DNA of 64,000 nucleotides, from contig OZ241981.1 of NCBI GenBank assembly GCA_965204345.1, positions 224,001 through 288,000 of the forward strand. The letters run 5' to 3'. The notes below the pieces were generated by a model that had not been told where the DNA came from, did no database searches, and saw only the letters and a list, made by a program, of their open reading frames with translations. This DNA comes from Nitrosopumilus sp. Lineage in GTDB: Archaea; Thermoproteota; Nitrososphaeria; Nitrososphaerales; Nitrosopumilaceae. Made by a program: the position numbers and the translations under genes. Of this stretch, positions 6,758 to 63,896 are shown in pieces. How positions within the stretch are numbered: position 1 is the stretch's first letter; the number at the start of each line of letters is the position of its first letter.

Positions 6758-9700
6758 CCTCTTGATAATTATTTTCCGTCTGTTGCATAATCACAGGAAT
6801 CACTTTTTCAATCTCGTCAGTTGGGAAATCTTCTTTTATTAATATTTTAGTTACTCCAACTCGAATTTCGGCTTTGACTTGTTCTTGATTTAACCAATCA
6901 ATCTTTAGATTTTTCTTCAGATAATCAACAACATCTATTGCAATCTTTCGTGCATCGATGTCATTTTCCAGATATTCTCTGCCCATCCTAATGATATCAT
7001 AAAATGCAATTTCCTCATTAGTCATTTCTAGTTCATCCGTTCTTTTTGACTCATCAGTAATATCAGATGCTACCTTTTCAAATTCTGGATATAGTGTGTC
7101 AAAATCTTCAAATTTTCCATGATACCTTGATAATGTCTTTTCAATTCTTTCCTGGAAAGTCTTTTGTTTTGAGATATTCCCTTTTAGTCGCGCCTTAATT
7201 GCATCATCAAGTAACTTGTATGCCAATTCCATCTTGAGATTTTTTTGGGAAAATTTCTTTATCTTTTCCATGTATTCCTTGTTTAGATCAATTTTTTCAT
7301 CATCGTACTTGATGTCATAAAATCGAATATTCTCATCAGCATCAATTGCCTCTTCCACCAAATCCCGGATTGCATCTTCCTTTTCAGGAGGTGTGTAAAG
7401 TATTCCTGCGACTGATTTTGACATGATTCTACGCATTAGCTGGAAGAATCTCAAATCATCTTCTACTTCCTGGCATGCCGGATGTGGCGTACACACAGCA
7501 TATGCTTTGGTCAGTTCTGCAACATTTTTTATGAATTGCTTTCGAACTTCTTGATCATCTAGAATTTCTTCTATTGCATCATCAAGGTATGAGCCTTGTC
7601 TTCTCTGTGAATACGGTTTGTCAACCCCAATATCTACAGTAAAAAAGCTACATAATTCCAAGTGCTTCTTTTGCATGTACAAAACAATCTCCTCAGTTGG
7701 TATCATTGCGCCCCTAACATCGGATTCATTATATGATCGAAACGCAGATTTTAAATCATCAGTAATTCCAATATAGTCAATAATCATTCCACGTGGTTTG
7801 TCCTTGTGAACGCGGTTGACACGGGATATTGCCTGGATTAGGTTATGGTCCCGTAGTAGTTTGTCCACATACATTGTATGTATTACAGGTGCATCAAATC
7901 CTGTCAGATACATGTCACAAACAATTAGTAATTCCAAATCACTGTTTTCATCTTTGAACTCTCTTACCAATTCTTCCATTTCAGATTTTGATTTGTAATG
8001 TTTTGATACTGTTTGTTCTCTATTCTTTTTTTCTTCAGATGCATCATCTGCAAGTGGTTTTGCTAACCCGGAAATCACACAAGTACATTTTGGAGCATCA
8101 GGAATTTGAGAAATTAAATCAGCATATCGAGCAGCTGCTAGTTTTGTTGATGTTGCAAGCATGGCCTTTCCTTTGAGTGTTTTTTGTTTTTCTTTAAAGT
8201 GACAAACCAAGTCTTTTGCAATTACCTCTAGTCTGTCAGGATCCTCCAGCATTGTTTTTAGCTCGGACCATTTTTTTGAAAGGGACTCTATTACATCAGG
8301 ATCTAAATCTTCTGTAATCTTATTAAAATCAGCACCAATCATTTTGTTTTGCAAGTGGAGTTGGACTAGTCTGCTTTGACAGGTAATTTCTACAGTGGCC
8401 CTGTCTCGTACTGCATCGCTAATTCTGTAGGCAGAGAGAACATCTCCAAATACGTGCGTAGTTGACTTGTCTTCTTTCTCAATTGGCGTGCCTGTGAAGC
8501 CAATTTTAAGCGCATTTGGAAGTGCTCTTTGCAGGTTTTGAGCCATGGTCTTGTACTGTGAGCGGTGTGCCTCATCAGCTATTATGATGATGTTTCTCCT
8601 CTCAGAAATTAATGGATATTTTACCATCCCTTCTTTTTCGTCTTGTGTTGTTTGGAATTTCTGAATTGTTGTAAATATTATCTTTCCAGCCGGAACTGCC
8701 AACTTTTCTCTTAAATCAACTATGGAATCAGCTTCCAACATTGCAGTCTTTGGTTTTGGATATGGAAATCCTGCAACCTTGAAGAAATTTCCCAGCTGGC
8801 CATCCAAATCCTTTCTATCAGTTAGGATTACAAAGGTTGGATTTTCCAATTGTTTTATTTGAGAAACAATATTTGTATACAAAATCATTGTTAGTGATTT
8901 ACCACTGCCTGTTGTATGCCAGATAACACCAATTTTATTATCTCCACTTTGTGGATAAACTTCTAATGTTCGTTTAACTGCTGCCTTAACTCCGGTGTAC
9001 TGGTGTTGTTGTGCAATTTTTTTAATTGTTTTACTTCCATCTGATTCGTATTCAGTGTAGTTTTGAATTATTTCCAATAATGATTCTTTGGTTAACATTA
9101 GATGTTGCATCATCTCTAATCTGTTTGCAACTGTCTTGTCAGGATCTTCAGGGTCATTCCAATCTGAAAATCTTTCAAAGGGCGCAGTCATTGTTCCATA
9201 TCTTGCATATATTCTATCGCTGATTATCAAAAATGAAACATAGTTGAATAGACGAGGGATAAATTTTTGATAGTTAGTAATTCCCAGTTGCTTGTATGCT
9301 GAAACAATATCAGTTGATGAGTTTGTTGGATCTTTGTACTCTAAAAGAACCAAAGGCAACCCATTTACAAATATAATGTGATCTGTCCGTCTTTGTTCAT
9401 GTTGCTTAATGATTAGTTGCCTAACTGCCAAAAAGTCATTGTTTTCTGGAACCTCAAAGTCTACTAGTTTTATGGCATAGTATCTGGTCTGACCCTCTGA
9501 TTGATATGGCACCTTGACACCTGCAAGCAGCATTTGGTGAAACTCTCGATTGTTTTCTATCGTAGTTGGATTTGTCAGTGATTTTACCTGGTTTATTGCA
9601 GTTGTGTAGACAGTTTCAGGTAAATTTGGGTTTAATTGACGGATTTTTGTGCCTAACCGGTCTAGTAAGAGAACGTCACTGTAGTTTTTTCGCTCATTGT

Positions 9701-9800
9701 TTAGATCAGTTCCTTCCAATATTTCGTAACCCAACTCTTCGAATGTCTTATGAGCTGGTAGTTCAACTAATTCAATCTCATTTAGTTCTGATGGGGACAT
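6741..9800 (-). CDS. hsdR: Type I restriction endonuclease subunit R
   Basis: DHIIFVNGLPLVLLEYK nuclease motif, WHTTGSGKS, IADEAHRSQY, GFTGTP, MYLTGFDAP, QAISRVNR. Confidence 0.96.
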   Translation of the reverse strand: MSPSELNEIELVELPAHKTFEELGYEILEGTDLNNERKNYSDVLLLDRLGTKIRQLNPNLPETVYTTAINQVKSLTNPTTIENNREFHQMLLAGVKVPYQSEGQTRYYAIKLVDFEVPENNDFLAVRQLIIKQHEQRRTDHIIFVNGLPLVLLEYKDPTNSSTDIVSAYKQLGITNYQKFIPRLFNYVSFLIISDRIYARYGTMTAPFERFSDWNDPEDPDKTVANRLEMMQHLMLTKESLLEIIQNYTEYESDGSKTIKKIAQQHQYTGVKAAVKRTLEVYPQSGDNKIGVIWHTTGSGKSLTMILYTNIVSQIKQLENPTFVILTDRKDLDGQLGNFFKVAGFPYPKPKTAMLEADSIVDLREKLAVPAGKIIFTTIQKFQTTQDEKEGMVKYPLISERRNIIIIADEAHRSQYKTMAQNLQRALPNALKIGFTGTPIEKEDKSTTHVFGDVLSAYRISDAVRDRATVEITCQSRLVQLHLQNKMIGADFNKITEDLDPDVIESLSKKWSELKTMLEDPDRLEVIAKDLVCHFKEKQKTLKGKAMLATSTKLAAARYADLISQIPDAPKCTCVISGLAKPLADDASEEKKNREQTVSKHYKSKSEMEELVREFKDENSDLELLIVCDMYLTGFDAPVIHTMYVDKLLRDHNLIQAISRVNRVHKDKPRGMIIDYIGITDDLKSAFRSYNESDVRGAMIPTEEIVLYMQKKHLELCSFFTVDIGVDKPYSQRRQGSYLDDAIEEILDDQEVRKQFIKNVAELTKAYAVCTPHPACQEVEDDLRFFQLMRRIMSKSVAGILYTPPEKEDAIRDLVEEAIDADENIRFYDIKYDDEKIDLNKEYMEKIKKFSQKNLKMELAYKLLDDAIKARLKGNISKQKTFQERIEKTLSRYHGKFEDFDTLYPEFEKVASDITDESKRTDELEMTNEEIAFYDIIRMGREYLENDIDARKIAIDVVDYLKKNLKIDWLNQEQVKAEIRVGVTKILIKEDFPTDEIEKVIPVIMQQTENNYQEVGFDS

Positions 9801-9835
9801 TTTGATTTACATATTGGATCAGATTCAATCATAAT

Positions 9836-11182
9836 TTAAGTTTGAGTTGTTTTTATTTTTGTATTTTCTAGTACAGATAAAATGGTATAAAGAATGTTTT
9901 CTAGTCGTAAGAGGTGGCTTTGATGCTGGTTCATATCTTTTTGAATGCTACATACTGAACGTTCAATGAATGTCAAATTACATGGTTTGTCATTTACAGT
10001 CTTGTTATTCTGTGTGGTAGAATGTTTCTTACATGAATAGTTGGTAGAGCCTGTAAGGAGATTTATTCTCTCAGATGCTTTTGAGAATTCGTGGATGCTT
10101 GATTCAGGATATAATACAAATTGTTTTTCGTAACTATCCTTTGGACTGTGTCCTATTATGTGATCTGCAACATCTGGCCTGCATCCTGAATCAATAAGTG
10201 TTGATTTGAGAAGATCTCGCATTCGATGTAATCTGTATTGATTTTTGGTCTGAAGGTTTGGCACATGGTTTTGTAGTTTGGATCTTGCAGCCAACTTGCG
10301 AAATCTTTTGTATATCCAGTTAACTGTGATTGGATTTCCCTCCGTATCTACAAACAACGCATTGTCAATTTTGGGTTTATCCTGTCTTGTCTTTAGATAT
10401 TCAGTTATTGCTACAACTGCATCAACATCAAGAAATCCCGTATGCATGAATCCTGTCTTTACCCTGACAAGTGGAATAGGAATCGGTGTGTTATTCAAAT
10501 TCCATGATTCGGGATTCTCAGATCTAAAATGCTTGAGAAGGCACTCCCATACCTCAAAATTAAATCTGTCTACCAGTGTTGAACTATCTAGTCCTCTCTG
10601 AAACTTGCACAAAAGTACAGCTTTCTCTATTGGCTGTATGTCATTGACGGTTAGAATTCCCCAAAGATCTTCAATGGTAAACAATTGATCATGATGTTTT
10701 TTCTCATTTCTGTTGATTCTGTGTTTGAATTGAAACGTAATGTCGGACTCATTTTCCCTAAAAAATGATCTGATGGAATACATGGCAATTTTTGTAGTGG
10801 ATTGTTTTCTTACAGATAACATTTCTGCCAGGTATTTCTTGATCAAGTGTGCAAAATCTGCCTTGTTGGCATAGTCTTTTCTGCTGAGCTCAAGCAAATG
10901 TTCTATTCCTGCAAGTTGTGTAATGGTTTTATGCTGTTGCAAGATGTTTGTATCTACTTGTATCGGTACAACAAACTGAAATTCCTTGTTTAAAAGCCAC
11001 TTGTGAAATCCCAATAATCCATATGTGTATGCATCCCTTGTACCGCCATGTCGTGATTTACCCTTTATGTTTTTTGTATTGGTACCACTCAACTGCTGTC
11101 TCCAATATTTTACAGATTCAAGTTTACAAAAATCATCAAAAGACATATTTGTATAATTTGGTGTGCCTGCAAGTTTTTTCAA
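9836..11182 (-). CDS. Tyrosine recombinase / integrase
   Basis: Catalytic-type motifs RVK, HRMR (HxxR), HIIGH followed by Y in KDSYEK. Confidence 0.85.
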   Translation of the reverse strand: MKKLAGTPNYTNMSFDDFCKLESVKYWRQQLSGTNTKNIKGKSRHGGTRDAYTYGLLGFHKWLLNKEFQFVVPIQVDTNILQQHKTITQLAGIEHLLELSRKDYANKADFAHLIKKYLAEMLSVRKQSTTKIAMYSIRSFFRENESDITFQFKHRINRNEKKHHDQLFTIEDLWGILTVNDIQPIEKAVLLCKFQRGLDSSTLVDRFNFEVWECLLKHFRSENPESWNLNNTPIPIPLVRVKTGFMHTGFLDVDAVVAITEYLKTRQDKPKIDNALFVDTEGNPITVNWIYKRFRKLAARSKLQNHVPNLQTKNQYRLHRMRDLLKSTLIDSGCRPDVADHIIGHSPKDSYEKQFVLYPESSIHEFSKASERINLLTGSTNYSCKKHSTTQNNKTVNDKPCNLTFIERSVCSIQKDMNQHQSHLLRLENILYTILSVLENTKIKTTQT

Positions 11183-44202: not shown

Positions 44203-44431
44203 AAGACATAGCAGATAATCGCTCTCCTTAAACCTTCATCAATATCTAAATAGAGAAAATCTAAAAAGGAACTGGTAAGTTAGCGGGGCATGACTACAAA
44301 TCTTATTCCTGGAAAGCCTCGGGGCTTTTATTTATCTGACTTTATGTGATGGTTCTGTTAACTTATTGAGTATTTGATATCCGATCTTCTTCGTGTTAAC
44401 TGTCGGTACCTAGAAATAAAAAAACTGGTTT

Positions 44432-45376
44432 TTAAAGACTTTTCAGCTTTCTAAGCAAATCCAAATCTGGTGATTTTTCTTGTGCATCATTGATTATTTT
44501 GTATATTTTTTCAAAACGGATTTTTGATTCGGGTTTTTTTACTGGTATATTGTTATGTTTGCAGAACTCATACATTTCTTCAAATACTTTGTTTCTTTTA
44601 AACAATATAACATCAATGCCTTTTTTCTTGAATTGGTTGACCATCATACCTGTAAGATCATCAACTAAAAATAATTGAATGTCTCGTGCAAGTCCTTCAT
44701 CTGCTACTTCTGGATTGCCTATTCCCAATAATTTTAATTCTATTTTATAGAGTCTTTTATCACGATCAATCAATATTCCATCTGTTTCTCTTACGGAGTC
44801 TATTTTTTTCTGGATATCCTTAGTTATTAGTATGAAATTATCCTCTGGTATTTCTAAATGTTTGAATAACGTAAGTAAAATTGAATTTTCTGTTTTCTTT
44901 CCAACCTCACTCCAAGCTCCACCCCTAATGGATGATTTCATTGATGAGACTGCATTTATGAAAATCATGCTTTCAGTTTCGTCTAATCGTATTGATTCGT
45001 TTTTGCATCTTATGTCAATTGAAATTAAATATTTTGTCTCTATTGTTTGTAAAAGTGTTTCAAATGCATTAACATTGTCTTTTCCAACTTCGAAGCAAAT
45101 TCGCTTTGATGTTGAACCACTCATGTTAAGTATTGTCTTTTGATTCAGTCCAGCTAGCCATGCTATTTTTTTCTTATCTTCTGATTTCTCATAATGAGCA
45201 TTTATGATTTGTACCCAGTTTTTGCCCTGTTTTTTATATTCGAAAATATTCTCTATCAATTCATCTACCTGTTTTACGAATCTTTCATTTATTATGGCAA
45301 GAATGTATTTTCTATGGTCTTGAGCTGTAAAAACAGAATGAATTATTTTACTTAGCAGATTGGTGCTATATGTCAT
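44432..45376 (-). CDS. Type II restriction endonuclease, CfrBI-like
   Basis: AGLNQKTI, IRGGAWSEVGK, RETDG...IELKLLGIGNPEVAD. Confidence 0.78.
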   Translation of the reverse strand: MTYSTNLLSKIIHSVFTAQDHRKYILAIINERFVKQVDELIENIFEYKKQGKNWVQIINAHYEKSEDKKKIAWLAGLNQKTILNMSGSTSKRICFEVGKDNVNAFETLLQTIETKYLISIDIRCKNESIRLDETESMIFINAVSSMKSSIRGGAWSEVGKKTENSILLTLFKHLEIPEDNFILITKDIQKKIDSVRETDGILIDRDKRLYKIELKLLGIGNPEVADEGLARDIQLFLVDDLTGMMVNQFKKKGIDVILFKRNKVFEEMYEFCKHNNIPVKKPESKIRFEKIYKIINDAQEKSPDLDLLRKLKSL

Positions 45377-45450
45377 TTTTTATTTGTTCGATTGCATCCA
45401 ATATTCGACTTTGATTATCTTTCAGTCTTTTCTTTGTTGGAATCTTATTG

Positions 45451-46755
45451 TTAATGGATGAACCTGGGTTTTTTTTTGACATGATCCAGAAAATCAAACA
45501 TATATGATGTGACACTGTCATGTATGTTTTTCAAAGAATATGCACAATTGCTATCTTTTTGCAAGATCACTATTTGCTCATCATTGATATTTCCAATCTT
45601 GGAATTTGTGTATTTGGTTGTAGGATCTATATTTCTGAAAAATGTTTTTTTGTGTACAAATCCCCCTACATTAGCATATTTTTCAAATAATTTGTACGGT
45701 TCTATTTTTTCAAACTCTATGGTAGATGTGCCTAAAATAACAGCACAGTAACGATTTTTATCAAGAGCATGATTCATTTTAAATAAAAATTTGAGCATAT
45801 CGCCTAGATACTCACTTAATAATCTAAATCTATTATGGACAAATTTTGAATGACTACCTATTTCATGTTTCCTCAGGTCTTTAAAGTTGTATTCCAAGAA
45901 GTGCATGTTGTACATATGGGTTCTGTGATAATCCAATGCGTTAACATATGGAGGTGAAGTTATCACCAAATCCACACTTCCTTTTTTGAGATATAATTCG
46001 TTGATGTCTTTGTTAAACAATGTTACAGAAGGCCTGTTGTCAATACTATAATTCATGTTAAGAATTTCTTCGTGGATAAATGCTATTTTTTTCTTAAAAA
46101 CTTCCAATATGTTGACTGATTTTTTTGAATTAAACATATACCATAATGTAGAACTGAGTGTCAATCTACACAAATTGGATATTTTAGAATCATTTTGACA
46201 ATTAATGAAATTTTTTATTAATAGAATATGTTTGATATTTTGATTAGAAAGTAAACTGGTGATCTTTCTTTTTGGCAAAATACTAATTTCCTCATTTATC
46301 ATTTTCTTTGTAATTTTAATCTCAAAATCGTCAAATCTTTGCAAGGCTCTTGAAAACTTGATTGGTGATATTGAAGTTGTTTTCATTTTTGATATCAATA
46401 TTGACAGAGGATTCAAATCAGAGCCAATAGAATCACGATTATTCATAAAGGATTCTAGAATTGTAGTACCGCTACCGCAAAATGGGTCTAGCACAATATC
46501 ATTTTTTTTACTTAGATTTTTAATAAGACTACTGGCTATTTGTGGGATGAATCTGGCAGGGTATGGATGTATCTTATGCGTAAGATAAGTCTTTGAATTT
46601 GTAAAATTCCAGTCGATTTTATTCATATCAAAAAATGGTTTTTCAGAAATTAAATCATCCTGTCTTTGTATTGATATATTTTTTTGTACCAAGTTTGGTT
46701 TTGTCTTATTGTCTCTACATTTAACGTTTAATTTGGTCAAATTGATCTCACTCAT
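45451..46755 (-). CDS. DNA amino-methyltransferase (probably m4C); C-terminus probably frameshifted in an A9 tract
   Basis: IHPYPARFIP, DPFCGSGTT, TSPPY; with A8 the frame would run on to 45366 and overlap the REase start. Confidence 0.88.
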   Translation of the reverse strand: MSEINLTKLNVKCRDNKTKPNLVQKNISIQRQDDLISEKPFFDMNKIDWNFTNSKTYLTHKIHPYPARFIPQIASSLIKNLSKKNDIVLDPFCGSGTTILESFMNNRDSIGSDLNPLSILISKMKTTSISPIKFSRALQRFDDFEIKITKKMINEEISILPKRKITSLLSNQNIKHILLIKNFINCQNDSKISNLCRLTLSSTLWYMFNSKKSVNILEVFKKKIAFIHEEILNMNYSIDNRPSVTLFNKDINELYLKKGSVDLVITSPPYVNALDYHRTHMYNMHFLEYNFKDLRKHEIGSHSKFVHNRFRLLSEYLGDMLKFLFKMNHALDKNRYCAVILGTSTIEFEKIEPYKLFEKYANVGGFVHKKTFFRNIDPTTKYTNSKIGNINDEQIVILQKDSNCAYSLKNIHDSVTSYMFDFLDHVKKKPRFIH

Positions 46756-46922
46756 CTCAATGGTTTGACATGGATCACCATTTCACCATCTTTTACGGTG
46801 ATCTCCCAATCCAGTTTATCCTTTTCCTTCAGTTTAAAGTGAGTGGTAATACTTTGTGGAATCGTGGTTCTCAAACTAATGGATGTTGTAGTGGCTTTAT
46901 TGATCGACGTTATATCCCCCAT
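46752..46922 (-). CDS. 56-aa AbrB/MazE-like DNA-binding protein (absent from the ORF track)
   Basis: SLRTTIPQSITTHFKLKEKDKLDWEI; ATGA overlap with the MTase start. Confidence 0.82.
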   Translation of the reverse strand: MGDITSINKATTTSISLRTTIPQSITTHFKLKEKDKLDWEITVKDGEMVIHVKPLR

Positions 46923-47014
46923 AGGTAACTAGATAAGACATTGCCATTTATAGTTACCTACCAATAAGTTACCTATAGTGTTACCTTTATTAATAGGTAA
47001 AGATATAGGTAACT
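46921..47014. promoter_or_regulatory. Divergent promoter region with six AGGTAA(C) operator-like repeats
   Basis: taggtaact, agttaccta twice, gttacctt, taggtaaa, taggtaact within 94 bp. Confidence 0.7.
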
Positions 47015-48148
47015 ATGAATGAAAGAGAAATTAGAGGAAAACAAATTGCAGAAAAACAGGATCAGATTAGACGACTAAATGAAACTCATTATGAGGTTAA
47101 CAGTCAGTCAAGAAGAATAACACATGACGTTGTTGGCACTGAATTAGGCTGGTCTTGCAGCTGCGAGGATCATAATTTTAGAAAAATCTGCTGTAAGCAC
47201 ATTCATGCAGTAGAGATCTCACTTAATCTTCATCAAAAGGTAAAAGATGATGTTGTAATTTCAGAAGTGGTAATTGACTGCTGCAAGTATTGCAAATCAC
47301 AAAATATTGTAAAACGAGGCATACGAAAAAACAAGAGTGGTAATATCCAAATATTCTGCTGTAAGGACTGCACACGCAAATTCTCAATTAATCTAGGTTT
47401 TGAGGGAATGAGGGCAACGCCTGACCAGATAACAATGGCTATGAATTTGCGTTTTAATGGTGAATCCTCACGCAAAGTGGCACATTCATTAACCCTTACA
47501 GGTGTTAAAATATCTCATATCACTGTCCAAAACTGGAACAAGAAATATGTCAATCTCATGGAAAAGTATCTTGATAAGATAACCCCACAAGTAGGTGAAC
47601 AGTGGAGAACAGATGAGTTATACCTGAAAATCAAGGGCGATAAAAAATACCTCTTTGCAATGCTTGATTCAGAAACCAGATTTTGGTTATCTCAAATGGT
47701 GTCAGAACACAAGGGACATGATGATGTATCTCCAATGTTTGTACAAGCTAAAAAGAAAGCAAAGAAAGTTCCTAAAACTCTAATTTCAGACGGAGCTGCA
47801 AACTTTCATCATGCTTGGAAAAAACAGTACAAAGCTAAAAACTATCTTCACAAAAAAACAGAACACCGCAGGCATATACACTTGTCAGGGGATATGAACA
47901 ACAACCAGATGGAATCCTTCAACTCAAACACATTACGAATGAGAGAGAAAGTAACAAGAGGAATCAAAAAAGATGATTCTGCAATACTCAAAGGTATGCA
48001 GATTCACCACAACTACATAAGACCACATCAAGGACTAGATGGAGATACACCAGCAGATAGATCAGGGATTAAAATTATGGGTGATAACAAGTGGAAAACT
48101 ATCATTCAAAATGCATCTTCTAAAAGCCCCGAGGCTTTCCAGGAATAA
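47015..48148 (+). CDS. IS6-family DDE transposase with N-terminal SWIM and zinc-ribbon domains
   Basis: CSC...CKH SWIM; CKYC...CKDC; WRTDELY, ISDG, NNQMESFN; RPHQGL..TPA. Confidence 0.88.
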   Translation: MNEREIRGKQIAEKQDQIRRLNETHYEVNSQSRRITHDVVGTELGWSCSCEDHNFRKICCKHIHAVEISLNLHQKVKDDVVISEVVIDCCKYCKSQNIVKRGIRKNKSGNIQIFCCKDCTRKFSINLGFEGMRATPDQITMAMNLRFNGESSRKVAHSLTLTGVKISHITVQNWNKKYVNLMEKYLDKITPQVGEQWRTDELYLKIKGDKKYLFAMLDSETRFWLSQMVSEHKGHDDVSPMFVQAKKKAKKVPKTLISDGAANFHHAWKKQYKAKNYLHKKTEHRRHIHLSGDMNNNQMESFNSNTLRMREKVTRGIKKDDSAILKGMQIHHNYIRPHQGLDGDTPADRSGIKIMGDNKWKTIIQNASSKSPEAFQE

Positions 48149-48358
48149 GATTTGTACACTGTTCAATCTTAGGGGCTTTTCAACTGGGTGTTAAATTAGG
48201 GTCTTTTTGTGTTAAGTTAGGTGCTTTTCGTATTGAAAAAATAAGTAACTGTTCAAAACTCGGGACATGGAATCAATCTTCTAATCCAAAAGATGACCTA
48301 ATGCATTCTGCGTCATCATTGTAATCTTGGAGAGGGCATGTACTAAATTTACAAAAAA

Positions 48359-49447
48359 TCAGATTCGATCTAAGATTTCTTGTGTATATTTACCATCAAA
48401 TTTTTCGACATTGTCATGCATGCCACAATCAAACACATAGTCACAATATTTCAGGCATTTTCGTGGGTTGCCATTACTTTTTTCATATATTACCTTGAAA
48501 AATTCAGGACTGATAAAAGGCCAAGATTTGTGAGGCAATGTTTCTGCATGATTAGTTCTATTTTCTTTAATTCTGTCCACAAGCAGTATTTCAGTATTTT
48601 TCTCTGAGAGAGGAAGTAACTCAATTTTATTGATTTTTGGATTCACTCTATCCATCCAAGGAATTATTCCACCTCCACCTTTTCTTGCCTCCATGTTTGT
48701 GAGAAATTCCCAACATCCCGGAGTCATGGCAATAATAAAAATTGTTTTTGCAAGAGAGTCAGGATTGTTTCCATATTCATCATAAATCTCCTTAAAGAAA
48801 TACAGTATTGCGTCAATCTGTTTTTGATTGTAAACAGTAACGACATACTCAAACTCATCAATTAGTAAATAGATATTTTCTATTTCTGCATGTTTTAGGA
48901 ATTTGAGAAAGTTATGAAATACAAGCAAGGCATCCCTACTTGTAAGTAGATTTGTTGAGATTCCAAGATCTCTTTTGTCTTTATCAGGCAAAGACTGTCC
49001 ACAAAGCCAATCATATGCAATACGCTTCTGATCCCGTATGCCATTGATGATTTTTTGGAAATTTGCATCAGCTAATCTTTGATCCAAGTTGGAGGATTTG
49101 CTGACAATCTCACACATTTTTGGGTATCCAATGTTTCTAAATGCACGTGTTACGATTGAGTGACCAATCTTTGTTTCGGCTTCACCCTCCACCAAACGCA
49201 TAGTAATAACAAGATTTTTTTGGTTATCTTTGATTTTTTTATCGCCAAGTCTTTCTCTGATTTTTTTAAGAAGTAAAGTTTTGCCAATGCCATAATCTCC
49301 AATAATCAAAAAGGTTCTACTGCCAACAAATTTCTTATCGATGAAATCATCAAGACGCCTCATCTCATCTTTTCTCCCTACAACAGGATAGTCCTGACGT
49401 AAATCATCAAAAAGACCATGTTTTAGATGAAAATCTTCAGCGGTCAT
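48359..49447 (-). CDS. AAA+ ATPase (BrxD/DUF2791- or Orc1/Cdc6-like)
   Basis: Walker A GDYGIGKT, Walker B LLIDEFE, DWLCG, SNGNPR. Confidence 0.8.
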   Translation of the reverse strand: MTAEDFHLKHGLFDDLRQDYPVVGRKDEMRRLDDFIDKKFVGSRTFLIIGDYGIGKTLLLKKIRERLGDKKIKDNQKNLVITMRLVEGEAETKIGHSIVTRAFRNIGYPKMCEIVSKSSNLDQRLADANFQKIINGIRDQKRIAYDWLCGQSLPDKDKRDLGISTNLLTSRDALLVFHNFLKFLKHAEIENIYLLIDEFEYVVTVYNQKQIDAILYFFKEIYDEYGNNPDSLAKTIFIIAMTPGCWEFLTNMEARKGGGGIIPWMDRVNPKINKIELLPLSEKNTEILLVDRIKENRTNHAETLPHKSWPFISPEFFKVIYEKSNGNPRKCLKYCDYVFDCGMHDNVEKFDGKYTQEILDRI

Positions 49448-50271
49448 TTTTCAGAAATTGTCAAAAAATGGTAATAAGTCTTGTTATGAAATATCCCGCC
49501 AACTTGTCGCACACCAGTCTCAGACAGGATAATTTTTTTGTCAGGCTTGTCAGTCATTGTTTTGATCAAATATTCTTTAAAATCCAGCGGTGTAAACCCC
49601 TTGTTCTTTAGTTTGGATGAAACCAGAGATTTGATCGAAGGAATTGATACATAGGTTCCCTTTTCTTTTTTGATTTTTTCGTATTCAGCATACAGTATTT
49701 TTTTAAATTCTTTTGAAGAAACTAGTTGAGGCTTGCTTTCTAATGCTTCTACCATGTTTGAATTAAAATGGTAGATTGGAGGTGAATAGGTCAGCAACTC
49801 ACAGTATGCAAGAAATTGCAACCATCTACGCAATTTGTCATCAGTTTTTTTGACTAGTGTGTCTTGTCTACCTAATTCTTCGACGAGGTCGTTATACTTC
49901 AAGTCTTTTTTTGTTTTTTTAAAAATGTCAAGAATGTGACATTTTTCATTATCTAATTGCAAAAGTATTCTAGATAATTCTTTTTTGTACATTTCAAGAC
50001 TATCGGAGATAGAATAAAGATACTTACCTTCTGGCGTCAATGTCACGTTTTGATTTTCACCTTGCAGTAACCGTAGTTTTCTGAGCGAATGCGTAACTCT
50101 TACTCTGAACGGATCAAGATGAGGGGATGCAATTTGTTTGCTGGTTTTTTTATAATGTTTAAGTGCCAATTGTTCTATCTCTTTGCGATTTCCTACATTT
50201 TCTTCAATTATTTTTAGCATTGGAAGTACATCAGTAGGAGAAATTTTTAGTGCTAGAAGAATGATTTTCAT
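49444..50271 (-). CDS. Hypothetical protein, probable tandem winged-helix DNA-binding protein
   Basis: SLRKLRLL...VTLTPEG wing motif, KLRRWLQFL; ATG 50271 overlaps the upstream stop. Confidence 0.6.
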   Translation of the reverse strand: MKIILLALKISPTDVLPMLKIIEENVGNRKEIEQLALKHYKKTSKQIASPHLDPFRVRVTHSLRKLRLLQGENQNVTLTPEGKYLYSISDSLEMYKKELSRILLQLDNEKCHILDIFKKTKKDLKYNDLVEELGRQDTLVKKTDDKLRRWLQFLAYCELLTYSPPIYHFNSNMVEALESKPQLVSSKEFKKILYAEYEKIKKEKGTYVSIPSIKSLVSSKLKNKGFTPLDFKEYLIKTMTDKPDKKIILSETGVRQVGGIFHNKTYYHFLTISEK

Positions 50272-51239
50272 GAAGATGGCCAACAATGATTAAAGTACGA
50301 ACATGATCTGCATTTTTCATCAGAATCGGGCTTTCCTGGATCCTTCTTGGTTTTCATCTGTTCCAGTAAATTTTGACGTCTTAAAAGAAATGCTTTCCTA
50401 TATCTGTCTTCAATCAAGATGACTTCAGAATTAAAGAAATGTGGAACATTACGTTTGTTTGCAAATTCAGGTGTTACAATCATTCCCAAGTTCATTGATT
50501 TGCCATATATTTTTTCATAAATTAATGCGTACCCACCCAATGTGTTTAGATATTCGTCTTTCCATGGAGGGGACTTGACATCAATGATAATTTTGTTATC
50601 AAACAGGAAATCAGGTTGCGCACTCTTAGTTATTCCAAAAGAGGATACAGTAAAGGAAGGTTTTGAAGCAAATGGAAATAAGTTCATAGACATTAAACTG
50701 ATATTGATATCTTTAGTTATTGATATTTTATAATCCAGCAATGCACTTGCTATTTGTGTCTCATAACGTAATGTTTGCTTTAACAGTAAAATGAAATCAT
50801 CAATTACAGGTTGGCTTGGAGAGTTTATTATTTTTGCCTTCTTGTCTTTGATTAACTTCTCTGCATAATCCATAAAATTACTACTATGAGAATCAAAATC
50901 AGTCATAATGTCGGCATTTTTTAAATTAACCGTATTGAGATAATTATGTAATTTTTTTATAAACTTGTCATACACCTTATCCAATATTTGTCCAGACAGC
51001 ATTTCCCATGTTTGTTCATGTTTTGCCTTAGGGACATACTTGTGCAGATATGCATAACGATCAGTAGGACAATATTTAATTGGAATCTGATTAAAAGGCA
51101 CAGACAAAGCAGATTCTCTAAAATCAGCTGGAACATCATTTTTTGGTCTATATCCACGAATGTGGATTTTATCCTCTGCTATTTTTTCTAATTCCTGGAT
51201 TTTGTTGGAATTAAGATTGTCTAAAACAAGCTTCATCAT
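50268..51239 (-). CDS. Cas4/Csa1-like PD-(D/E)XK nuclease with four Fe-S cysteines
   Basis: IRGY...KYCPTDR (Csa1-like), QPD...IIDVK, LGGYAL, DPG...CRSCSYFNHC. Confidence 0.82.
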   Translation of the reverse strand: MMKLVLDNLNSNKIQELEKIAEDKIHIRGYRPKNDVPADFRESALSVPFNQIPIKYCPTDRYAYLHKYVPKAKHEQTWEMLSGQILDKVYDKFIKKLHNYLNTVNLKNADIMTDFDSHSSNFMDYAEKLIKDKKAKIINSPSQPVIDDFILLLKQTLRYETQIASALLDYKISITKDINISLMSMNLFPFASKPSFTVSSFGITKSAQPDFLFDNKIIIDVKSPPWKDEYLNTLGGYALIYEKIYGKSMNLGMIVTPEFANKRNVPHFFNSEVILIEDRYRKAFLLRRQNLLEQMKTKKDPGKPDSDEKCRSCSYFNHCWPSS

Positions 51240-52447
51240 GGTTTTTTCAATATCACAATGTGTTCATTATAAATCCTGTTCGTAATATTTGCTCTTTTTA
51301 TGCCTAACCTATGAAATTTGATTTCGTCTAACATTTCTAATTTAAAATCAAATCCAGATTCTTCTCCCATACGGCGTAAAAATACATTTAATGGCACTCG
51401 TTGCTCCAATACTTTACTATTACCCACAATAATAGCACAATGTCCTCCGGATTTTAGCACTTTGTAAAATTTGTTCATTATTTCATGTAAATCATTAAAG
51501 TACTGACTAGTTTTAAGCCCATAAGAAGTAGATTTGGAATAAATTTTATCTATGAAATTATCAACCTCTTTGATTTGTGTATACATCAATTCCTTATCCA
51601 TACCAGAACTCAGTTCACCATGAATAGATTTTCGTGCTAATTTTCGATACTCCTCTACTGAACCATTATTTAACCAAAAATTTTCCAGTTTGGTACTACG
51701 AAAATATTCCATTGCAGAAAGATAGGGGGGTGATGTGACAATCATATCTACCCTTCGTCGTAAATTAATTTTTTTGACATCATCGCCAATGATCTGAGCT
51801 TTTGACTTTATATCAGAAATTTCATTTATACGATCAATATTGAAATCCAGTTGTAGTAGAAATTCGTTTAGTACATTAGGTGGGTGTGGTTGTTTTGCTA
51901 ATCTTGGCAGGATATCTCGCGGCTCTGCATTTGATACTTTTTTCACAATTGCAGAAAAACAAATCAAAAGAAAATCACGAATGTCATTATCAGTGTCAAC
52001 ATTATCTATCACATGTTTTATTTTTGCTAAATCATTTTGTGTCTTTTTAGTGAACCAAAAGTCTCGATTTTGAAATTGTGGAACAGTTACTTTTTTAGAT
52101 TTTTTTATATCCAAATAACACTGATGAGATTTTTTTTTAAGTTCGTCAACATCCAGTGGAGTTATTTTTACTTTGGAAATCAATCTAGCAATAGGATTCA
52201 ATTCTATACCAAGTGCATCACGCTGTAATAATATAGATTCCAACAACGTAGTTCCAGAACCACAGAATCCGTCCAAGATTGTATCATGTTCCTTGGAAAA
52301 TTTACTGATAAGATAATTTGGAATATGCGGAATTAATTTTGCAGGATATTTGTGAATGTGATGAGTTGCTCTGGTTCTTTTTGAAAGTTCAGGCATAAGT
52401 TCTTTAAAGTTTATTGGAATCGATTGTTTTTGTAAAAGTATAGACAT
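51236..52447 (-). CDS. DNA amino-methyltransferase (probably m4C)
   Basis: IHKYPAKLIP, DGFCGSGTT, GIELNP, VTSPPY. Confidence 0.9.
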   Translation of the reverse strand: MSILLQKQSIPINFKELMPELSKRTRATHHIHKYPAKLIPHIPNYLISKFSKEHDTILDGFCGSGTTLLESILLQRDALGIELNPIARLISKVKITPLDVDELKKKSHQCYLDIKKSKKVTVPQFQNRDFWFTKKTQNDLAKIKHVIDNVDTDNDIRDFLLICFSAIVKKVSNAEPRDILPRLAKQPHPPNVLNEFLLQLDFNIDRINEISDIKSKAQIIGDDVKKINLRRRVDMIVTSPPYLSAMEYFRSTKLENFWLNNGSVEEYRKLARKSIHGELSSGMDKELMYTQIKEVDNFIDKIYSKSTSYGLKTSQYFNDLHEIMNKFYKVLKSGGHCAIIVGNSKVLEQRVPLNVFLRRMGEESGFDFKLEMLDEIKFHRLGIKRANITNRIYNEHIVILKKP

Positions 52448-52999
52448 AATTTATCTCTCAAATTATTTTAAACTCTGAGTTGTGATCAATAATTGACTTT
52501 ATGATCGAATTTCTGGTCGTATTCTGTTTCTTTTGAATTTCTTTTTTGGGAATCTCTACAATAATTTTTTGACCAATAAAAATAGCAGGCATGCCGACTA
52601 TGCTACTTGTATCATTATTTTTTGTGACATGTTTTTGATAGTTAAAATGTGGATTCATTTTGTAATTCAAGTTTGTAAACCATATTTGTATTTAAGATGA
52701 CTTTGACACAAGATTATCATCAAATCACGGTTTTGCATCAGAACCAAGTTTGATGATACAGATACTTTGCACATCCCAATAATATCCAAAAACAACTTTC
52801 TGGTTCGTTTCTAATTGAAGATAAAGAGATAGTATCTGTTTTGTGTAGTTTATGTAAACAGTTCTCCCCTTGGACATACAACAAGTTTGATGAGGAGGAT
52901 CCAATTGCAGTTACAATATGGAATTTTATTTATTGACCGTGACACTTTAAACATGATATTGTGATTATTATAAATTCAGCCTAGCGATTAAAATAAAAT

Positions 53000-55096
53000 C
53001 TAGTTTGCCTGTGAGTCAAGCCATATGGTGTGTCGTATCTCGACAGGTTCTGTAGGAGCAGCAGATCCCATCTGAACCGTTATTCTAAATGGTATGGTTA
53101 TGGTCTGCTCGACTGCAGGCATGTCATATACTATGGAGTTTTGCTTGGTCTTCTCTATCTTGCTCCAGGAGTTATCTGCTGCACTGTACGTCTCTACCAG
53201 ATAATTTCTAAATAATGGCACATGATCCCATCCCAAATGTATGCGAGTTATGTCATTATCAGACGTGGAAGATGCGGCAGTATCAATTGCCCTGACACCA
53301 AAATTATCAGGTGACTCTAATGCAGATGGCATGGATATTGTAACTATGTCAGAGTATATCTTGTGCTGGCCTACCCGCTCAAATATTCTATATGAAATAT
53401 CCTGACCCAGCCATTCTGGTCGTATGGTATCCGATACAGTTCCGTTTCCGGCACTAAACTGCTCTACTATATTCTCACCATCCAGTCTCTGCATACGGTA
53501 TGTGTCATCACCAACTTCGTTACTGTCAGACCACTCTATGCTTATGGTATCAGAGCCTGCAATGTGGGATGCCTTTAACGCAAGATTGCTATCAAATGGC
53601 TCATCCCCGGTATTTACAAGGATGGTACTTTGTGTATTGTCATCTCCTCTTACTCCTACGGATACAAAGTATGCAGTGTCATCTTTGAGATTCTCAAAGG
53701 TGTAGTTGTGTATGCCTGCATCTACGATGTCAGTTGTTTTATCAGCAGGATTAGATACGGGGGCGATAACTATTTTGTATGGTTCCAGTTGTGTGGCATC
53801 ACCTGCCTCCCATGATACAGTTATGGTGCCATCCAATGAAGAATATTGCTTTGATGTAAACAGGACCGTATTTGGATTGCCATCATGCAACATGTCAAGA
53901 ATCTCAACCGTACTCAAATCATTAGTGTACGTATCAATGGCACCTGATGCACTACTGCCACCACCAGACACAGGTATCGTAACTACCTTGACATTATCAA
54001 TATGGAATGTAGAGTTGTCTGGGGATTGGGCCCACCCGAATATTAACAATCTACAGTGGCATTCACTAAAATCAATCAGTGGTACCCTGGCTGTAAACGT
54101 GTTAAACTCTGTTCCCACTGTTGGTTCCTGCGTGGTCTCCCATACGTATGTCTGATAAGAGGGAGTAAACGGACTTCCATCCCCAATCAGATACACCCTA
54201 AAATCGGCAGTGTCTGCTGTGTGCAGATAGTCAAATGAGAACTCCAGGTCGTGATTATCTGTAGGGGCATCAAGCTGGAAATATCTCTGCATGCCAATAT
54301 ATCCGACTCCGCATGCACCGTTAAAGTCAAAGTATGCAGAGCCATTGTTAACTGAGCTGTGTACCAGGCTGTGTCTGTTGGTGTCTGTTCTAACGCAGTC
54401 ATGTGAGGAGAACGTGTGTAGTGGAGCTCCCCAATTTCTCCAGGGATCAGTGTTATTATCAAATGTGTCATGCAGTACGGTGGTACTTTGTTTGATGGGC
54501 TCTTCATTTTTTATGATTATCTTTTGGATGGCAGTAGCCGTGTTTCCGGCAGTGTCAGTAACAGTCCAGGATACAGTAGAGTTTCCAATGCTGCGGCGCT
54601 CGTCTACATCACTGGTTATGAGGGGGGTATCATCAATGTTATCAGACGCAATGGCAAAACCCGTCTGGTCTTGATGCAGTATGACAGTTTCAGTATCTGC
54701 ATTAAGGGCATAACTAGGCGGGGCAGTTATGGTGGGTGCCACTCTGTCCTCGACTATGACTCGCTGGGCAGCAGAAGCAGTGTTTCCGGCAGTATCAGTA
54801 GCAGTCCAGACAATGGTGGTTACGCCTATTGGAAATATGTCAGGTGCGTTGTTAGTTATGACTGGTGCTGGTGTAGGATTGCCAATCAGCGTGGGCGTGC
54901 CAAGATTGACACTACTTTGAGATATGCCGTTACTTGATGTAGCTGTTAGGACTAGTCCGGGCGGAGCTGTAATGCGAGCAGTGGTCATGTTTGTGTCAGT
55001 TGAGCTTTGAGCAAAGGATTCAGCAGAATGCAACAGGATGCCTGCAGAGGCTATTACTGCCACTAAAGCTAGAACCCGTATCAATTTGATGTTCAA
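53000..55096 (-). CDS. Secreted HYR/fibronectin-III repeat surface protein
   Basis: Signal peptide; FPIGVTTIVWTATDTAGNTA HYR units; FN3-like TVSW...YTFENLKDDTAYFVSV. Confidence 0.8.
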   Translation of the reverse strand: MNIKLIRVLALVAVIASAGILLHSAESFAQSSTDTNMTTARITAPPGLVLTATSSNGISQSSVNLGTPTLIGNPTPAPVITNNAPDIFPIGVTTIVWTATDTAGNTASAAQRVIVEDRVAPTITAPPSYALNADTETVILHQDQTGFAIASDNIDDTPLITSDVDERRSIGNSTVSWTVTDTAGNTATAIQKIIIKNEEPIKQSTTVLHDTFDNNTDPWRNWGAPLHTFSSHDCVRTDTNRHSLVHSSVNNGSAYFDFNGACGVGYIGMQRYFQLDAPTDNHDLEFSFDYLHTADTADFRVYLIGDGSPFTPSYQTYVWETTQEPTVGTEFNTFTARVPLIDFSECHCRLLIFGWAQSPDNSTFHIDNVKVVTIPVSGGGSSASGAIDTYTNDLSTVEILDMLHDGNPNTVLFTSKQYSSLDGTITVSWEAGDATQLEPYKIVIAPVSNPADKTTDIVDAGIHNYTFENLKDDTAYFVSVGVRGDDNTQSTILVNTGDEPFDSNLALKASHIAGSDTISIEWSDSNEVGDDTYRMQRLDGENIVEQFSAGNGTVSDTIRPEWLGQDISYRIFERVGQHKIYSDIVTISMPSALESPDNFGVRAIDTAASSTSDNDITRIHLGWDHVPLFRNYLVETYSAADNSWSKIEKTKQNSIVYDMPAVEQTITIPFRITVQMGSAAPTEPVEIRHTIWLDSQAN

Positions 55097-62267: not shown

Positions 62268-63620
62268 ATGTACACAAACAGTAAAAGAAAACAAAAGGCA
62301 GCACAGATCTTCTCAAAGGCAAACTCGATTAGAAAGATTACAAGCAATCACTATGTTGTAAAATCACAAAACTCTGATAAAAAATATAACGTCAAAAAAT
62401 TACAGGATGCAGATGTATGGACTTGTGAGTGCAAAGACTTTCATTACAGGTTAAGAAAATTAGATGAGAAGCACTGCAAGCATATAGAATCATGCATCAT
62501 ATTACAGGATGCCATTCAGACCCAAAGCAGGGTAGAGAGAACAGAACAGCCTCAGGTCTGTCCAAAATGCAGCTCCACTACAATAGTCAAACGCGGATTT
62601 AGGAAACTAAAGAACGGTACAAAGAGGCAAAAATATGGCTGCAAGCAGTGCAATCGTAAATTCATCCTGGGCGAGAACGGATTCTCCAAAGTTTCATCTG
62701 ATCCAAAAATAATTTCCGAGTGTCTTAATCTGGTCATGTCTGGTGTCTCATACAGAAATATTGCACGACATGTCTACTCTGCACACGAGGTTGGGATTAG
62801 TCATGTGTCTGTGAGGAACTGGATGAAGAAATACACCCGAATAATCAAAGAGTATGTGGAATCATTTTATCCCGAATTATCTGATGTGTGGAGCTTGGAT
62901 GAGATGTATCTGAATGTCAAAAATACAAAGAAGACAGGCAAGGGATTTCATGACTGGCTTTGGAGCATAATTGATCCAAAGACTCGATTTCTGATAGCTA
63001 CTGAGGTCTCAAAGAAAAGAGAGATTGCAGATGCAAGAAAGATTATTGCAAGCGGCAAGAAGGTAGTTGCCAAGAACCCAAACTATGTTCTGACTGATTC
63101 GCTAAACTCGTATCAGGAAGCAATCAGAAAAGAATTTGAAAACAGAGCTGCACACATCAGGACAAAGTCACTCAAGGACGGCTTTGTTAACAGGCCAATA
63201 GAGAGATACCACAATGAGATTAGAGAGAGGCTAAAAGCCAGACGTGGGCTGGGCAATGATGAATCTGCACAAAACTTTGCAGAGTTACTCAAAATCAATC
63301 ATAACTTTGTAAAGCCCCATCAGGGGCTAGGTGGCAAGACGCCTGCTCAAGCTGCAAATATTGACTTGAATCTAGGTCAAGACAAGTATCTGGATCTGAT
63401 AAAACAGGCGGGAACCAAAGTGAACTTTGTAAACAATCTGGGAAAGAGAATCAAGAAGGTATCCATAGTAAATGAGGGTGATTCGATAAAAATAACGCCA
63501 AAACGCTGGATCGATAAACACATCTGGCGTGAGATTAATGATATTCTAAGGCTGCATGAGTTTAGCTGGCTGTCCAATGGCAAGGATAGCTGTTGGCTCA
63601 AACTAGTTTCCTCAAGATAG
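62268..63620 (+). CDS. IS6-family DDE transposase with SWIM, zinc ribbon and an extra C-terminal domain
   Basis: CEC...CKH; CPKC...CKQC; WSLDEMY, LTDS, NRPIERYHN; KPHQGLGGKTPA; ~65-aa extension. Confidence 0.88.
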   Translation: MYTNSKRKQKAAQIFSKANSIRKITSNHYVVKSQNSDKKYNVKKLQDADVWTCECKDFHYRLRKLDEKHCKHIESCIILQDAIQTQSRVERTEQPQVCPKCSSTTIVKRGFRKLKNGTKRQKYGCKQCNRKFILGENGFSKVSSDPKIISECLNLVMSGVSYRNIARHVYSAHEVGISHVSVRNWMKKYTRIIKEYVESFYPELSDVWSLDEMYLNVKNTKKTGKGFHDWLWSIIDPKTRFLIATEVSKKREIADARKIIASGKKVVAKNPNYVLTDSLNSYQEAIRKEFENRAAHIRTKSLKDGFVNRPIERYHNEIRERLKARRGLGNDESAQNFAELLKINHNFVKPHQGLGGKTPAQAANIDLNLGQDKYLDLIKQAGTKVNFVNNLGKRIKKVSIVNEGDSIKITPKRWIDKHIWREINDILRLHEFSWLSNGKDSCWLKLVSSR

Positions 63621-63896
63621 TTTCCTAAAACTAGACATCAAAGTATTCAATCAAGAAATAGTCAAAATACTAAAACCATAGAATTTCTTAAAGTAGAATC
63701 ATGTCGTTATGGGGAATCCGCCTTAACTTATTGGTCTGTTATGGGATTTACTTGAAGTAGATTCCAAGATTTGCAAAAACAGTGATTAAAAATCCCGTTT
63801 ATTTCTTCAATATGAAAAGCGCCTAACTTAACACAAAAAGACCCTAATTTAACACCCAGTTGAAAAGCCCCTAAGATTGAACAGTGTAAAGATTTG

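Follow-up and report, generated by a model that had tools for sequence, protein, structure and literature searches.

McrBC has an architecture of a reader, an AAA+ NTPase and a PD-(D/E)xK nuclease, and in CglI and NgoAVII a phospholipase D (PLD) nuclease fused to a B3-like reader is combined with a superfamily 2 (SF2) helicase. BrxD, a protein of type 2 BREX, is described in one study as an ORC/Cdc6-type AAA+ protein without a DNA-binding domain of its own, whose role in that system is unknown (PMC12839542). Another methylation-based defence, MADS, is bacterial, comprises eight genes and includes ATPase-nuclease modules (PMC13662399); of its genes, mad6, mad7 and mad8 form the mandatory set in the authors' model (10.1101/2023.03.30.534895). 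In addition, solo-Cas4 genes adjoin restriction-modification (R-M) genes in several DPANN genomes, for which uncharacterised defence pathways have been suggested (Hudaiberdiev et al. 2017, PMC5704561). Here we describe a locus that shares features with several of these systems, found in a 64,000-nucleotide stretch of Nitrosopumilus sp. DNA (hereafter the window; contig OZ241981.1, positions 224,001 to 288,000). It consists of four minus-strand open reading frames (ORFs) at window positions 48359-52447, hereafter the quartet, which according to the ORF list and profile searches encode, in this order, a DNA methyltransferase (MTase), a Csa1/Cas4-family nuclease, a winged-helix (WH) protein and an ORC/Cdc6-like AAA+ ATPase. 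We propose, with a probability of roughly 0.6, that the quartet is a horizontally mobile, ATP-dependent, R-M-like defence cassette, carried as transposon cargo in Nitrosopumilus and acting by a mechanism that we infer below.

The quartet is compactly organized: at all three junctions an ATGA on the coding strand contains both the stop of the upstream gene and the start of the downstream one. A sequence-only reading of this DNA had already described four co-oriented genes with such overlaps, and all ORFs and the three junctions were recovered where it had placed them. Its domain assignments also hold, with matches to PF01555 (MTase), PF06023 (nuclease) and PF10923 and AAA_16 (ATPase), the WH protein having only a sub-threshold match to PF09821. 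The same reading had not recognized the architecture as a named system; no PADLOC v2.0.0 system fits the quartet, and no description of it was found in the published literature searched, although overlap with loci in Table S1 of Hudaiberdiev et al. (PMC5704561) is possible. It had further proposed a neighbourhood search, by which the quartet is now known from nine other loci in archaea and bacteria, all with the four genes in the same order and in unrelated contexts, plus one more (L053) in which the MTase gene is relocated.

Within the genus, a close homolog of the nuclease is present in only two of 36 other genomes (G036 and G019), a patchy distribution. Both genomes have the complete quartet with its gene order unchanged (identity 70-80% in G036 and 54-62% in G019) and with flanking genes that differ from those in the window. 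A scan of a genome collection, seeded with one bacterial WH subfamily, identified three distant loci in metagenome-assembled genomes (MAGs) of Pacearchaeota, an uncultured bacterium and Micrarchaeia. All three keep the MTase-nuclease-WH-ATPase order, with intergenic gaps of -14 to +10 nt and 30-40% identity to the window proteins, and their flanks are unrelated: one locus has subtilase, NUDIX and SpoIIE genes, a second has genes for an Lhr helicase and a type III Res/Mod pair, and the remaining one has genes of transport and metabolism. In the Micrarchaeia MAG the quartet adjoins a type III R-M system. When metagenomes were scanned with the ATPase as seed, 13 contigs were obtained. In six of them the ATPase gene is preceded by 3.3 kb or more of sequence, and four of these six carry the canonical quartet (L045, L046, L050 and L051). 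Of the other two, L053 has nuclease, WH and ATPase genes, with the MTase gene convergent downstream, and L055 lacks an MTase. In L049, L052 and L056 the locus is cut by the contig end and the remaining order agrees, while L048, L054 and L057 are uninformative. On the remaining contig, of 3.7 kb (L047, positions 268-1531), a partial ATPase gene (about residues 120-362) follows an HNH endonuclease ORF, and no WH or nuclease gene was detected in the contig, which has about 740 nt upstream of the ATPase; as judged from these remains, L047 is a degraded remnant.

In an even sample of 401 genomes of the phylum, full-length WH protein and ATPase are each found only in the same two genomes (G000 and G356). 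The second, of the same genus, carries a distant subfamily with about 25-30% identity to the window proteins (L059, G356:C1:1096000-1112000, at 6505-10349), and its altered genes, described below, point to independent acquisition and decay. Across loci the four proteins diverge in parallel, and 10 of the 11 assessable loci have inherited the MTase along with the other genes. Since the same gene order is kept in nine loci with unrelated contexts, the arrangement is more than chance, and the quartet is very probably a functional four-gene unit. These data show that several archaeal phyla and bacteria have inherited the four genes together; the active-site residues of all three enzymes are conserved as well. 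The genes are rare, patchy in distribution, inherited jointly and horizontally mobile between domains, as would be expected of a defence cassette.

The nuclease belongs to the Csa1 family (PF06023, 1.8e-22, 80.5 bits against a cut-off of 27), as do all 18 of the family members examined. It matches the PADLOC Cas4/Cas4a models at about 1e-23 and scores 79.3 bits with the NCBIfam Csa1 equivalog TIGR01896, under the cut-off of 103.35; a sequence search against solved structures returned nothing. No variation was seen among 18 sequences at C57, D210, K222, Y237, C310, C313 and C319, and almost none at D220. The motifs kept in six aligned archaeal and bacterial sequences are the N-terminal Cys (C57), PDF (D210), (D/E)-x-K (K222), YA..YE and the C-terminal C-x2-C-x5-C. 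With Csa1 of type I-A loci (Cas4a) the nuclease thus has in common the Pfam family, the PD-(D/E)xK core and the four-Cys Fe-S motif. Unlike type I-A Csa1, it has no cas1, cas2 or cas4 neighbour and no detected array, and is flanked instead by the MTase and WH genes. The sequence-only reading had seen neither cas1 nor an array in the window. Indeed no cas1 is present there, and a crude scan of the whole genome (exact 20-mers in at least three copies with 45-95 nt spacing, not a dedicated CRISPR finder) found no array, 20 of 20 candidates being ordinary whole-period tandem repeats.

Canonical Csa1 behaves differently from the quartet nuclease. It lies directly beside cas1 in five of the five related genomes tested, out of six with such a distant Csa1 match (G047 being the sixth). 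In a maximum-likelihood (ML) tree of 27 rows, from which G054 and G047 were left out, 22 quartet-family nucleases (that of the window, 14 database relatives and those of L039, L040, L041, L046, L050, L051 and L053) fall on one side of a 100/100 branch and four cas1-linked Csa1 proteins on the opposite side. The nuclease of L055, a locus without MTase, groups with the cas1-linked proteins, but its branch is long and was flagged as unsafe. The tree and the gene neighbourhoods together show a quartet Csa1 clade that is separate from cas1-linked Csa1 and, by these sequence criteria, not linked to CRISPR. The sole Cas1 match in the genome of the window lies about 1.6 Mb away (C1:1886774-1888668) and contains two in-frame TAA stops. 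This Cas1 homolog adjoins a small Cas4-like ORF, and from their sequences the two are probably a casposon relic, as has been described for Nitrosopumilus (PMC6563490).

The MTase matches PF01555 (4e-18) and, over residues 27-402, the PADLOC model MTase_II (PDLC03362, 2.8e-49), and a sequence search against solved structures gave matches at the level of motif I only. D.F.GSGT, at about residues 58-66, is motif I, and it is followed by SPPY at residues 238-241 as motif IV. Both are kept in six of six aligned archaeal and bacterial sequences, as expected of a Type II amino-MTase with AdoMet motif I and a catalytic (S/D/N)PPY; SPPY is typical of N4-cytosine and N6-adenine MTases. The protein is a full-length paralog (26% identity, E 2e-31) of the MTase of a neighbouring CfrBI-type R-M pair, and M.CfrBI is an N4-cytosine MTase.

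The ATPase matches BrxC_BrxD (PF10923, 7.1e-11, 42.1 bits against a cut-off of 22.2) as well as AAA_16, and its relatives are labelled 'DUF2791 family P-loop' at NCBI. Weak matches include ORC1/Cdc6, BrxD, the Sll1717 family and TniB (E 0.0036), and in PADLOC only weak partial matches were obtained (mad8, SngB, BrxD and PDC-S20/S27; best E 3e-7). Walker A (G55/K56) and Walker B (LIDEFEY, 194-201) do not vary among 23 ATPase sequences, in which a GGGG loop and conserved arginines are also kept. An AlphaFold2 model (pLDDT 86) matches the folds of RuvBL, RuvB, Orc1/Cdc6 (2qby_A, TMq 0.52), RFC, TnsC and the defence ATPase RdrA, while a sequence search against solved structures gave only P-loop-level matches to ClpB/Hsp104. 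These initiator, clamp-loader and RuvB-type fold matches agree with the published ORC/Cdc6 classification of BrxD. A search of IMG/VR viral contigs with an ATPase alignment gave no confirmed match.

The WH protein belongs to no curated family. Its only Pfam match is PF09821, sub-threshold at 9e-4, a family matched by 12 of 47 members of the WH family; there is no NCBIfam match and no PADLOC-DB 2.0.0 model, a search with the window protein and six homologs giving one chance-level match. The AlphaFold2 model (mean pLDDT 90.5, pTM 0.87) has three winged-helix-like modules, at roughly residues 1-90, 92-170 and 186-275, and its best fold matches in the PDB are the recognition domains of BpuJI, FokI and N.BspD6I, with Foldseek probabilities of 0.77-0.99. 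A language-model search of the ESM Atlas places a FokI-recognition cluster among the nearest named ones (0.79, a score often reached by chance), the top match being a nameless, mostly bacterial cluster of 499 members. The family has few members: 20 relatives came from 5.8 billion proteins in a word-indexed search, and a full hidden Markov model (HMM) search, run on 1.84 billion representatives, gave 119 (at 50% identity) with E<=0.001, 16 of them with E<=1e-30. The sources include Bathyarchaeota and Anaerolineae MAGs. On the predicted structure the protein is likely a multi-winged-helix DNA reader, with Type IIS-like sequence recognition as a lead to follow. The recognition domains of FokI, BpuJI and N.BspD6I, to judge from the weak fold match, may resemble it in being arrays of winged-helix modules of about 280 aa. 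Unlike these, the WH protein is not fused to a nuclease and has no sequence-level match to them. As a separate observation, the C-terminal module alone ends small proteins of 170-230 aa in 20 genomes of the phylum sample (L019-L038; e.g. L022, 1492-2001), including 15 of 17 of one genus, which suggests a conserved housekeeping relative.

The last two genes of the quartet also have counterparts in a different setting. The sole plasmid match for the ATPase is on a Natronococcus plasmid (L058, NZ_CP099393.1, 347100-362134), where a DUF2791 ATPase aligned over its full length (hhalign 99.2%, E 1.5e-19) directly follows a 300-aa hypothetical protein whose C-terminal 90 columns match the third WH module (94.8%, E 5e-8). 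tblastn of the window WH protein and an Anaerolineae homolog against plasmids gave no match. The co-oriented genes on the plasmid encode, in order, a PLD-domain protein, a tRNA-guanine transglycosylase (TGT), a DUF6884 protein, a second TGT, the 300-aa WH-tail protein, the DUF2791 ATPase and a queuosine-precursor transporter, a set reminiscent of Dpd-type 7-deazaguanine DNA modification. This one example, with its partial match, suggests that a WH-tail protein and the ATPase form a module that may be reused with another modification chemistry and nuclease. Because a homologous pair is found in a different modification locus, there is indirect support for the WH protein and ATPase acting as a pair. 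A broader reading, in which triple-WH protein and DUF2791 ATPase are a portable 'modification-state reader plus licensing motor' whose modification enzymes and nucleases are interchangeable (MTase with Csa1, or DpdA-like with PLD), seems to us doubtful at present. If it were true, there would be an unrecognised class of modular ATP-dependent restriction systems in archaea and bacteria, and the Csa1 branch of Cas4 would have its first non-CRISPR job, in ammonia-oxidising archaea in which the scan detected no array.

A mechanism can be proposed from these parts. The MTase would mark host DNA at a short motif and, being a SPPY-type amino-methyltransferase, would produce N4-methylcytosine or N6-methyladenine. 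The triple-WH protein would read DNA, probably at the same motif when unmethylated, in the manner of a Type IIS recognition domain that has become separate. The ORC/Cdc6-like ATPase may then oligomerise on the DNA-bound reader, and ATP binding or hydrolysis might recruit or activate the Fe-S Csa1-type nuclease, which would degrade the unmarked foreign DNA. Reader and ATPase could in addition be a portable pair serving other modification enzymes and nucleases. That the quartet is a methylation-based defence appears, from the sequence evidence, somewhat more probable than its alternatives taken together; this specific division of labour among the four proteins is tentative, at less than even odds.

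By analogy, the logic of such a mechanism resembles McrBC turned to unmodified DNA by a cognate MTase, and it also resembles CglI/NgoAVII. The likeness to McrBC would lie in a reader, an AAA+ NTPase and a PD-(D/E)xK nuclease working as one machine; unlike McrBC, the quartet has a separate putative reader and an ATPase of the ORC/DUF2791 type, and its cognate MTase implies attack on unmodified DNA. Consistent with this difference, the McrB-type family AAA_5 is not among the 14 Pfam families matched at E<=1. With CglI/NgoAVII it would have in common an MTase accompanied by separate nuclease/recognition and NTPase subunits, whereas the components themselves differ: in the quartet the nuclease is of the Csa1 family, the putative reader has three winged helices and the ATPase is an AAA+ protein. 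With BrxD of type 2 BREX (Pgl) the quartet ATPase has PF10923 in common, each being a stand-alone AAA+ protein of ORC/Cdc6 type that lacks a DNA-binding domain, but the quartet locus has no BrxC-sized ATPase, PglX, PglW, BrxHI or BrxA/B. As the sequence-only reading had stated, PglZ, PglX and Dnd/Ssp are absent: PglZ (PF08665) has no match in the 99.7%-complete genome of the window, while control genomes match, and there are no matches to PglX or Dnd/Ssp at the locus. The remark on solo-Cas4 genes beside R-M genes is the closest published precedent found, and two quartet loci are in DPANN MAGs; the part of the solo-Cas4 survey available to us names no winged helix-turn-helix or ATPase partner and defines no system (PMC5704561).

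Other named systems were rejected as identities for the quartet. Dnd/Ssp is ruled out by the profile searches of the quartet proteins, which gave no such matches. For MADS, the ATPase has only a weak partial match to mad8 (E 8.8e-4 to 3e-6), and there is no match to mad6, mad7 or any other mad gene; the composition of MADS is different. For Druantia, which has DruA and the DruE helicase, DruA (PF14236) is matched by none of 18 nucleases and the window locus has no helicase. A DruA-like region is seen only in L055 (3468-7119), where a DruA-like (PF14236) N-terminal region takes up a 170-aa ORF and reaches into a second one; this second ORF runs on into the Csa1 domain and is followed by WH and ATPase genes, with a SWIM/DDE_Tnp_1 transposase adjoining.

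Other explanations of the quartet have to be weighed against the proposed defence cassette. It might be an ordinary Type II R-M pair of the MTase and a Csa1-fold endonuclease, with the WH protein as a C-protein-like controller and the ATPase as a dispensable accessory. The standard Type II-like MTase, a paralog of that of the CfrBI-type pair, fits such a view; PD-(D/E)xK is the commonest restriction fold, and winged-helix proteins often regulate R-M operons. However, WH protein and ATPase are retained in every intact variant across domains and are translationally coupled to the nuclease, and the two recur without MTase in L055 and in the Dpd-like locus. A WH protein of 275 aa with three modules is also far above the size of a controller protein. 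The invariant active-site motifs of the ATPase do not suit a dispensable accessory, and such conservation argues against an ATP-independent Type II-style endonuclease; we regard this explanation as unlikely. A decidedly improbable alternative takes the position of the quartet, 115 nt inside a transposon end, as its meaning: a TnsC/TniB-like ATPase, a TnsA-like nuclease and a target selector would serve transposition or maintenance of the 15.7-kb carrier element, or form an addiction module. The weak TniB matches, the presence of TnsC among many AAA+ fold matches and DDE transposases within a few kb in L055 and L010 are compatible with it. Nevertheless, none of the three distant genome loci has a transposase among the scanned flanking ORFs, a DDE transposase of the carrier itself lies at its opposite end, the nuclease is not TnsA but an Fe-S-cluster protein of the Csa1 family, and the MTase is co-inherited in nearly all assessable loci.

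A BREX-like or abortive system, in which viral replication is halted with no cleavage at unmethylated sites, ATPase and WH protein sense infection and the nuclease acts non-specifically, possibly on host DNA too, would draw on the BrxC_BrxD membership of the ATPase, on the ORC/Cdc6-type nature and unknown role of BrxD itself (PMC12839542) and on the MTase-less variant L055. We consider it improbable, as no PglZ was found in the genome, the cut-off of NCBIfam BrxD (NF033438) is 350 bits and the ATPase reaches 20.8, the locus is without a BrxC-sized ATPase, PglX or BrxA/B, and the near-universal linkage to an MTase fits self-marking for a nuclease. Finally, the Csa1 domain and the Cas1 homolog in the genome could be read as a CRISPR-adaptation remnant or satellite, with Csa1 still working with the distant Cas1. 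The distance of about 1.6 Mb, the in-frame stops in that Cas1, the undetected array, the separate nuclease clade and the flanking MTase and WH genes make this extremely improbable.

Several points weigh against the R-M-like defence cassette as proposed. The fold match of the WH protein to Type IIS recognition domains is weak (E 0.035-0.22, TMq 0.29-0.41, root-mean-square deviation 7.5-16 A), and the FokI and BpuJI Pfam families are matched by none of the 47 WH family members at E<=0.1. Cas4-family enzymes are described as end-processing exonucleases and not site-specific endonucleases (PMC5704561). The L055 locus consists of nuclease, WH and ATPase genes with no MTase within 6 kb or elsewhere in its 13 kb, so that methylation is perhaps not obligatory, and the G356 variant has a short MTase (280 aa) and a nuclease divided between two ORFs (110 and 207 aa). 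The contexts sampled are few as well, namely nine other loci and L053.

The quartet is a new combination of R-M-like parts, and in it the Csa1 branch of Cas4 has its first conserved context outside CRISPR. Marine ammonia-oxidising archaea have few known defence systems, and in nearly a third of archaeal genomes nothing beyond CRISPR and R-M was detected, according to a recent survey (PMC12988326). If the defence cassette is real, it would be a compact four-gene system that crosses the divide between archaea and bacteria and would open a first way into the function of the DUF2791/BrxD ATPases. Csa1, regarded as specific for type I-A adaptation (COG4343 is called 'specific for subtype I-A'; PMC5704561), would then have been recruited as an R-M-like effector. 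If, moreover, the WH protein is a stand-alone reader that directs a separate nuclease, a restriction tool programmable by swapping readers might be possible.

Table 1. The quartet and neighbouring features, in window coordinates
Feature	Position	Strand	Details
DNA methyltransferase	51236-52447	-	403 aa
Csa1/Cas4-family PD-(D/E)xK nuclease, four conserved Cys	50268-51239	-	323 aa
Winged-helix (WH) protein, three modules, no curated family	49444-50271	-	275 aa from ATG at 50271
ORC/Cdc6-like AAA+ ATPase, DUF2791 (BrxC_BrxD) family	48359-49447	-	362 aa
Small ORF upstream of MTase	52458-52658	-	66 aa from ATG; 10 nt upstream
Left 95-nt terminal inverted repeat of carrier	48150-48244	.	95% complementary to 63799-63893
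Right terminal inverted repeat of carrier	63799-63893	.	95% complementary to 48150-48244
DDE transposase of carrier	62268-63620	+	PF13610 DDE_Tnp_IS240, 1.4e-13
Second small transposon	44295-48156	.	perfect 36-nt inverted repeats, 44295-44330 and 48121-48156
CfrBI-family restriction endonuclease (second transposon)	44432-45376		PF09516, 2e-58
MTase of CfrBI-type R-M pair (second transposon)	45451-46755		
SWIM/DDE transposase (second transposon)	47015-48148		similar to carrier's transposase

The longest ORF of the WH gene begins at a TTG at 50286; the length in Table 1 is counted from the ATG. A 66-aa ORF just upstream of the MTase gene was also found by tblastn in the two closest relatives, L010 (53% identity) and L045 (47%), and not in the other nine loci searched; it matches no Pfam family at E<=1 and has at most a tentative likeness to AbrB. 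It may be a regulator or controller, its place in the system being uncertain.

Parts of the ATPase, WH and nuclease genes recur, with full identity, in RNA-library contigs from four marine metatranscriptome runs of one study, and some pieces span the ATPase/WH and WH/nuclease junctions. As such contigs are no proof of transcription, they are a weak hint that the quartet may be expressed. No RNA contig of the four runs covers 51380-52945, which includes most of the MTase gene and the region upstream, a gap that proves nothing. RNA contigs of all four runs start or stop at 52969-53100, the 3' end of a neighbouring 698-codon surface-protein gene, with a depth above that of the quartet, though contig depths cannot rank expression.

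The sequence-only reading had placed the quartet just inside a transposon end, and 95-nt inverted repeats were indeed found to bracket it together with a DDE_Tnp_IS240 transposase. The carrier element is 15.7 kb long, and the quartet stops 115 nt inside its left repeat. Besides the quartet and the transposase, it contains two giant HYR/fn3 surface-protein genes and a 474-codon ORF without a family. The G+C content of the quartet region is about 31-35%, like that of its left neighbour, and the surface-protein genes to the right have 43-47%. The right end of the second, small transposon, which carries the CfrBI-type R-M pair, overlaps the left end of the carrier by 7 nt. Two adjoining transposons, one with this pair and one with the candidate R-M-like cassette, thus make the locus a small island of mobile defence genes.

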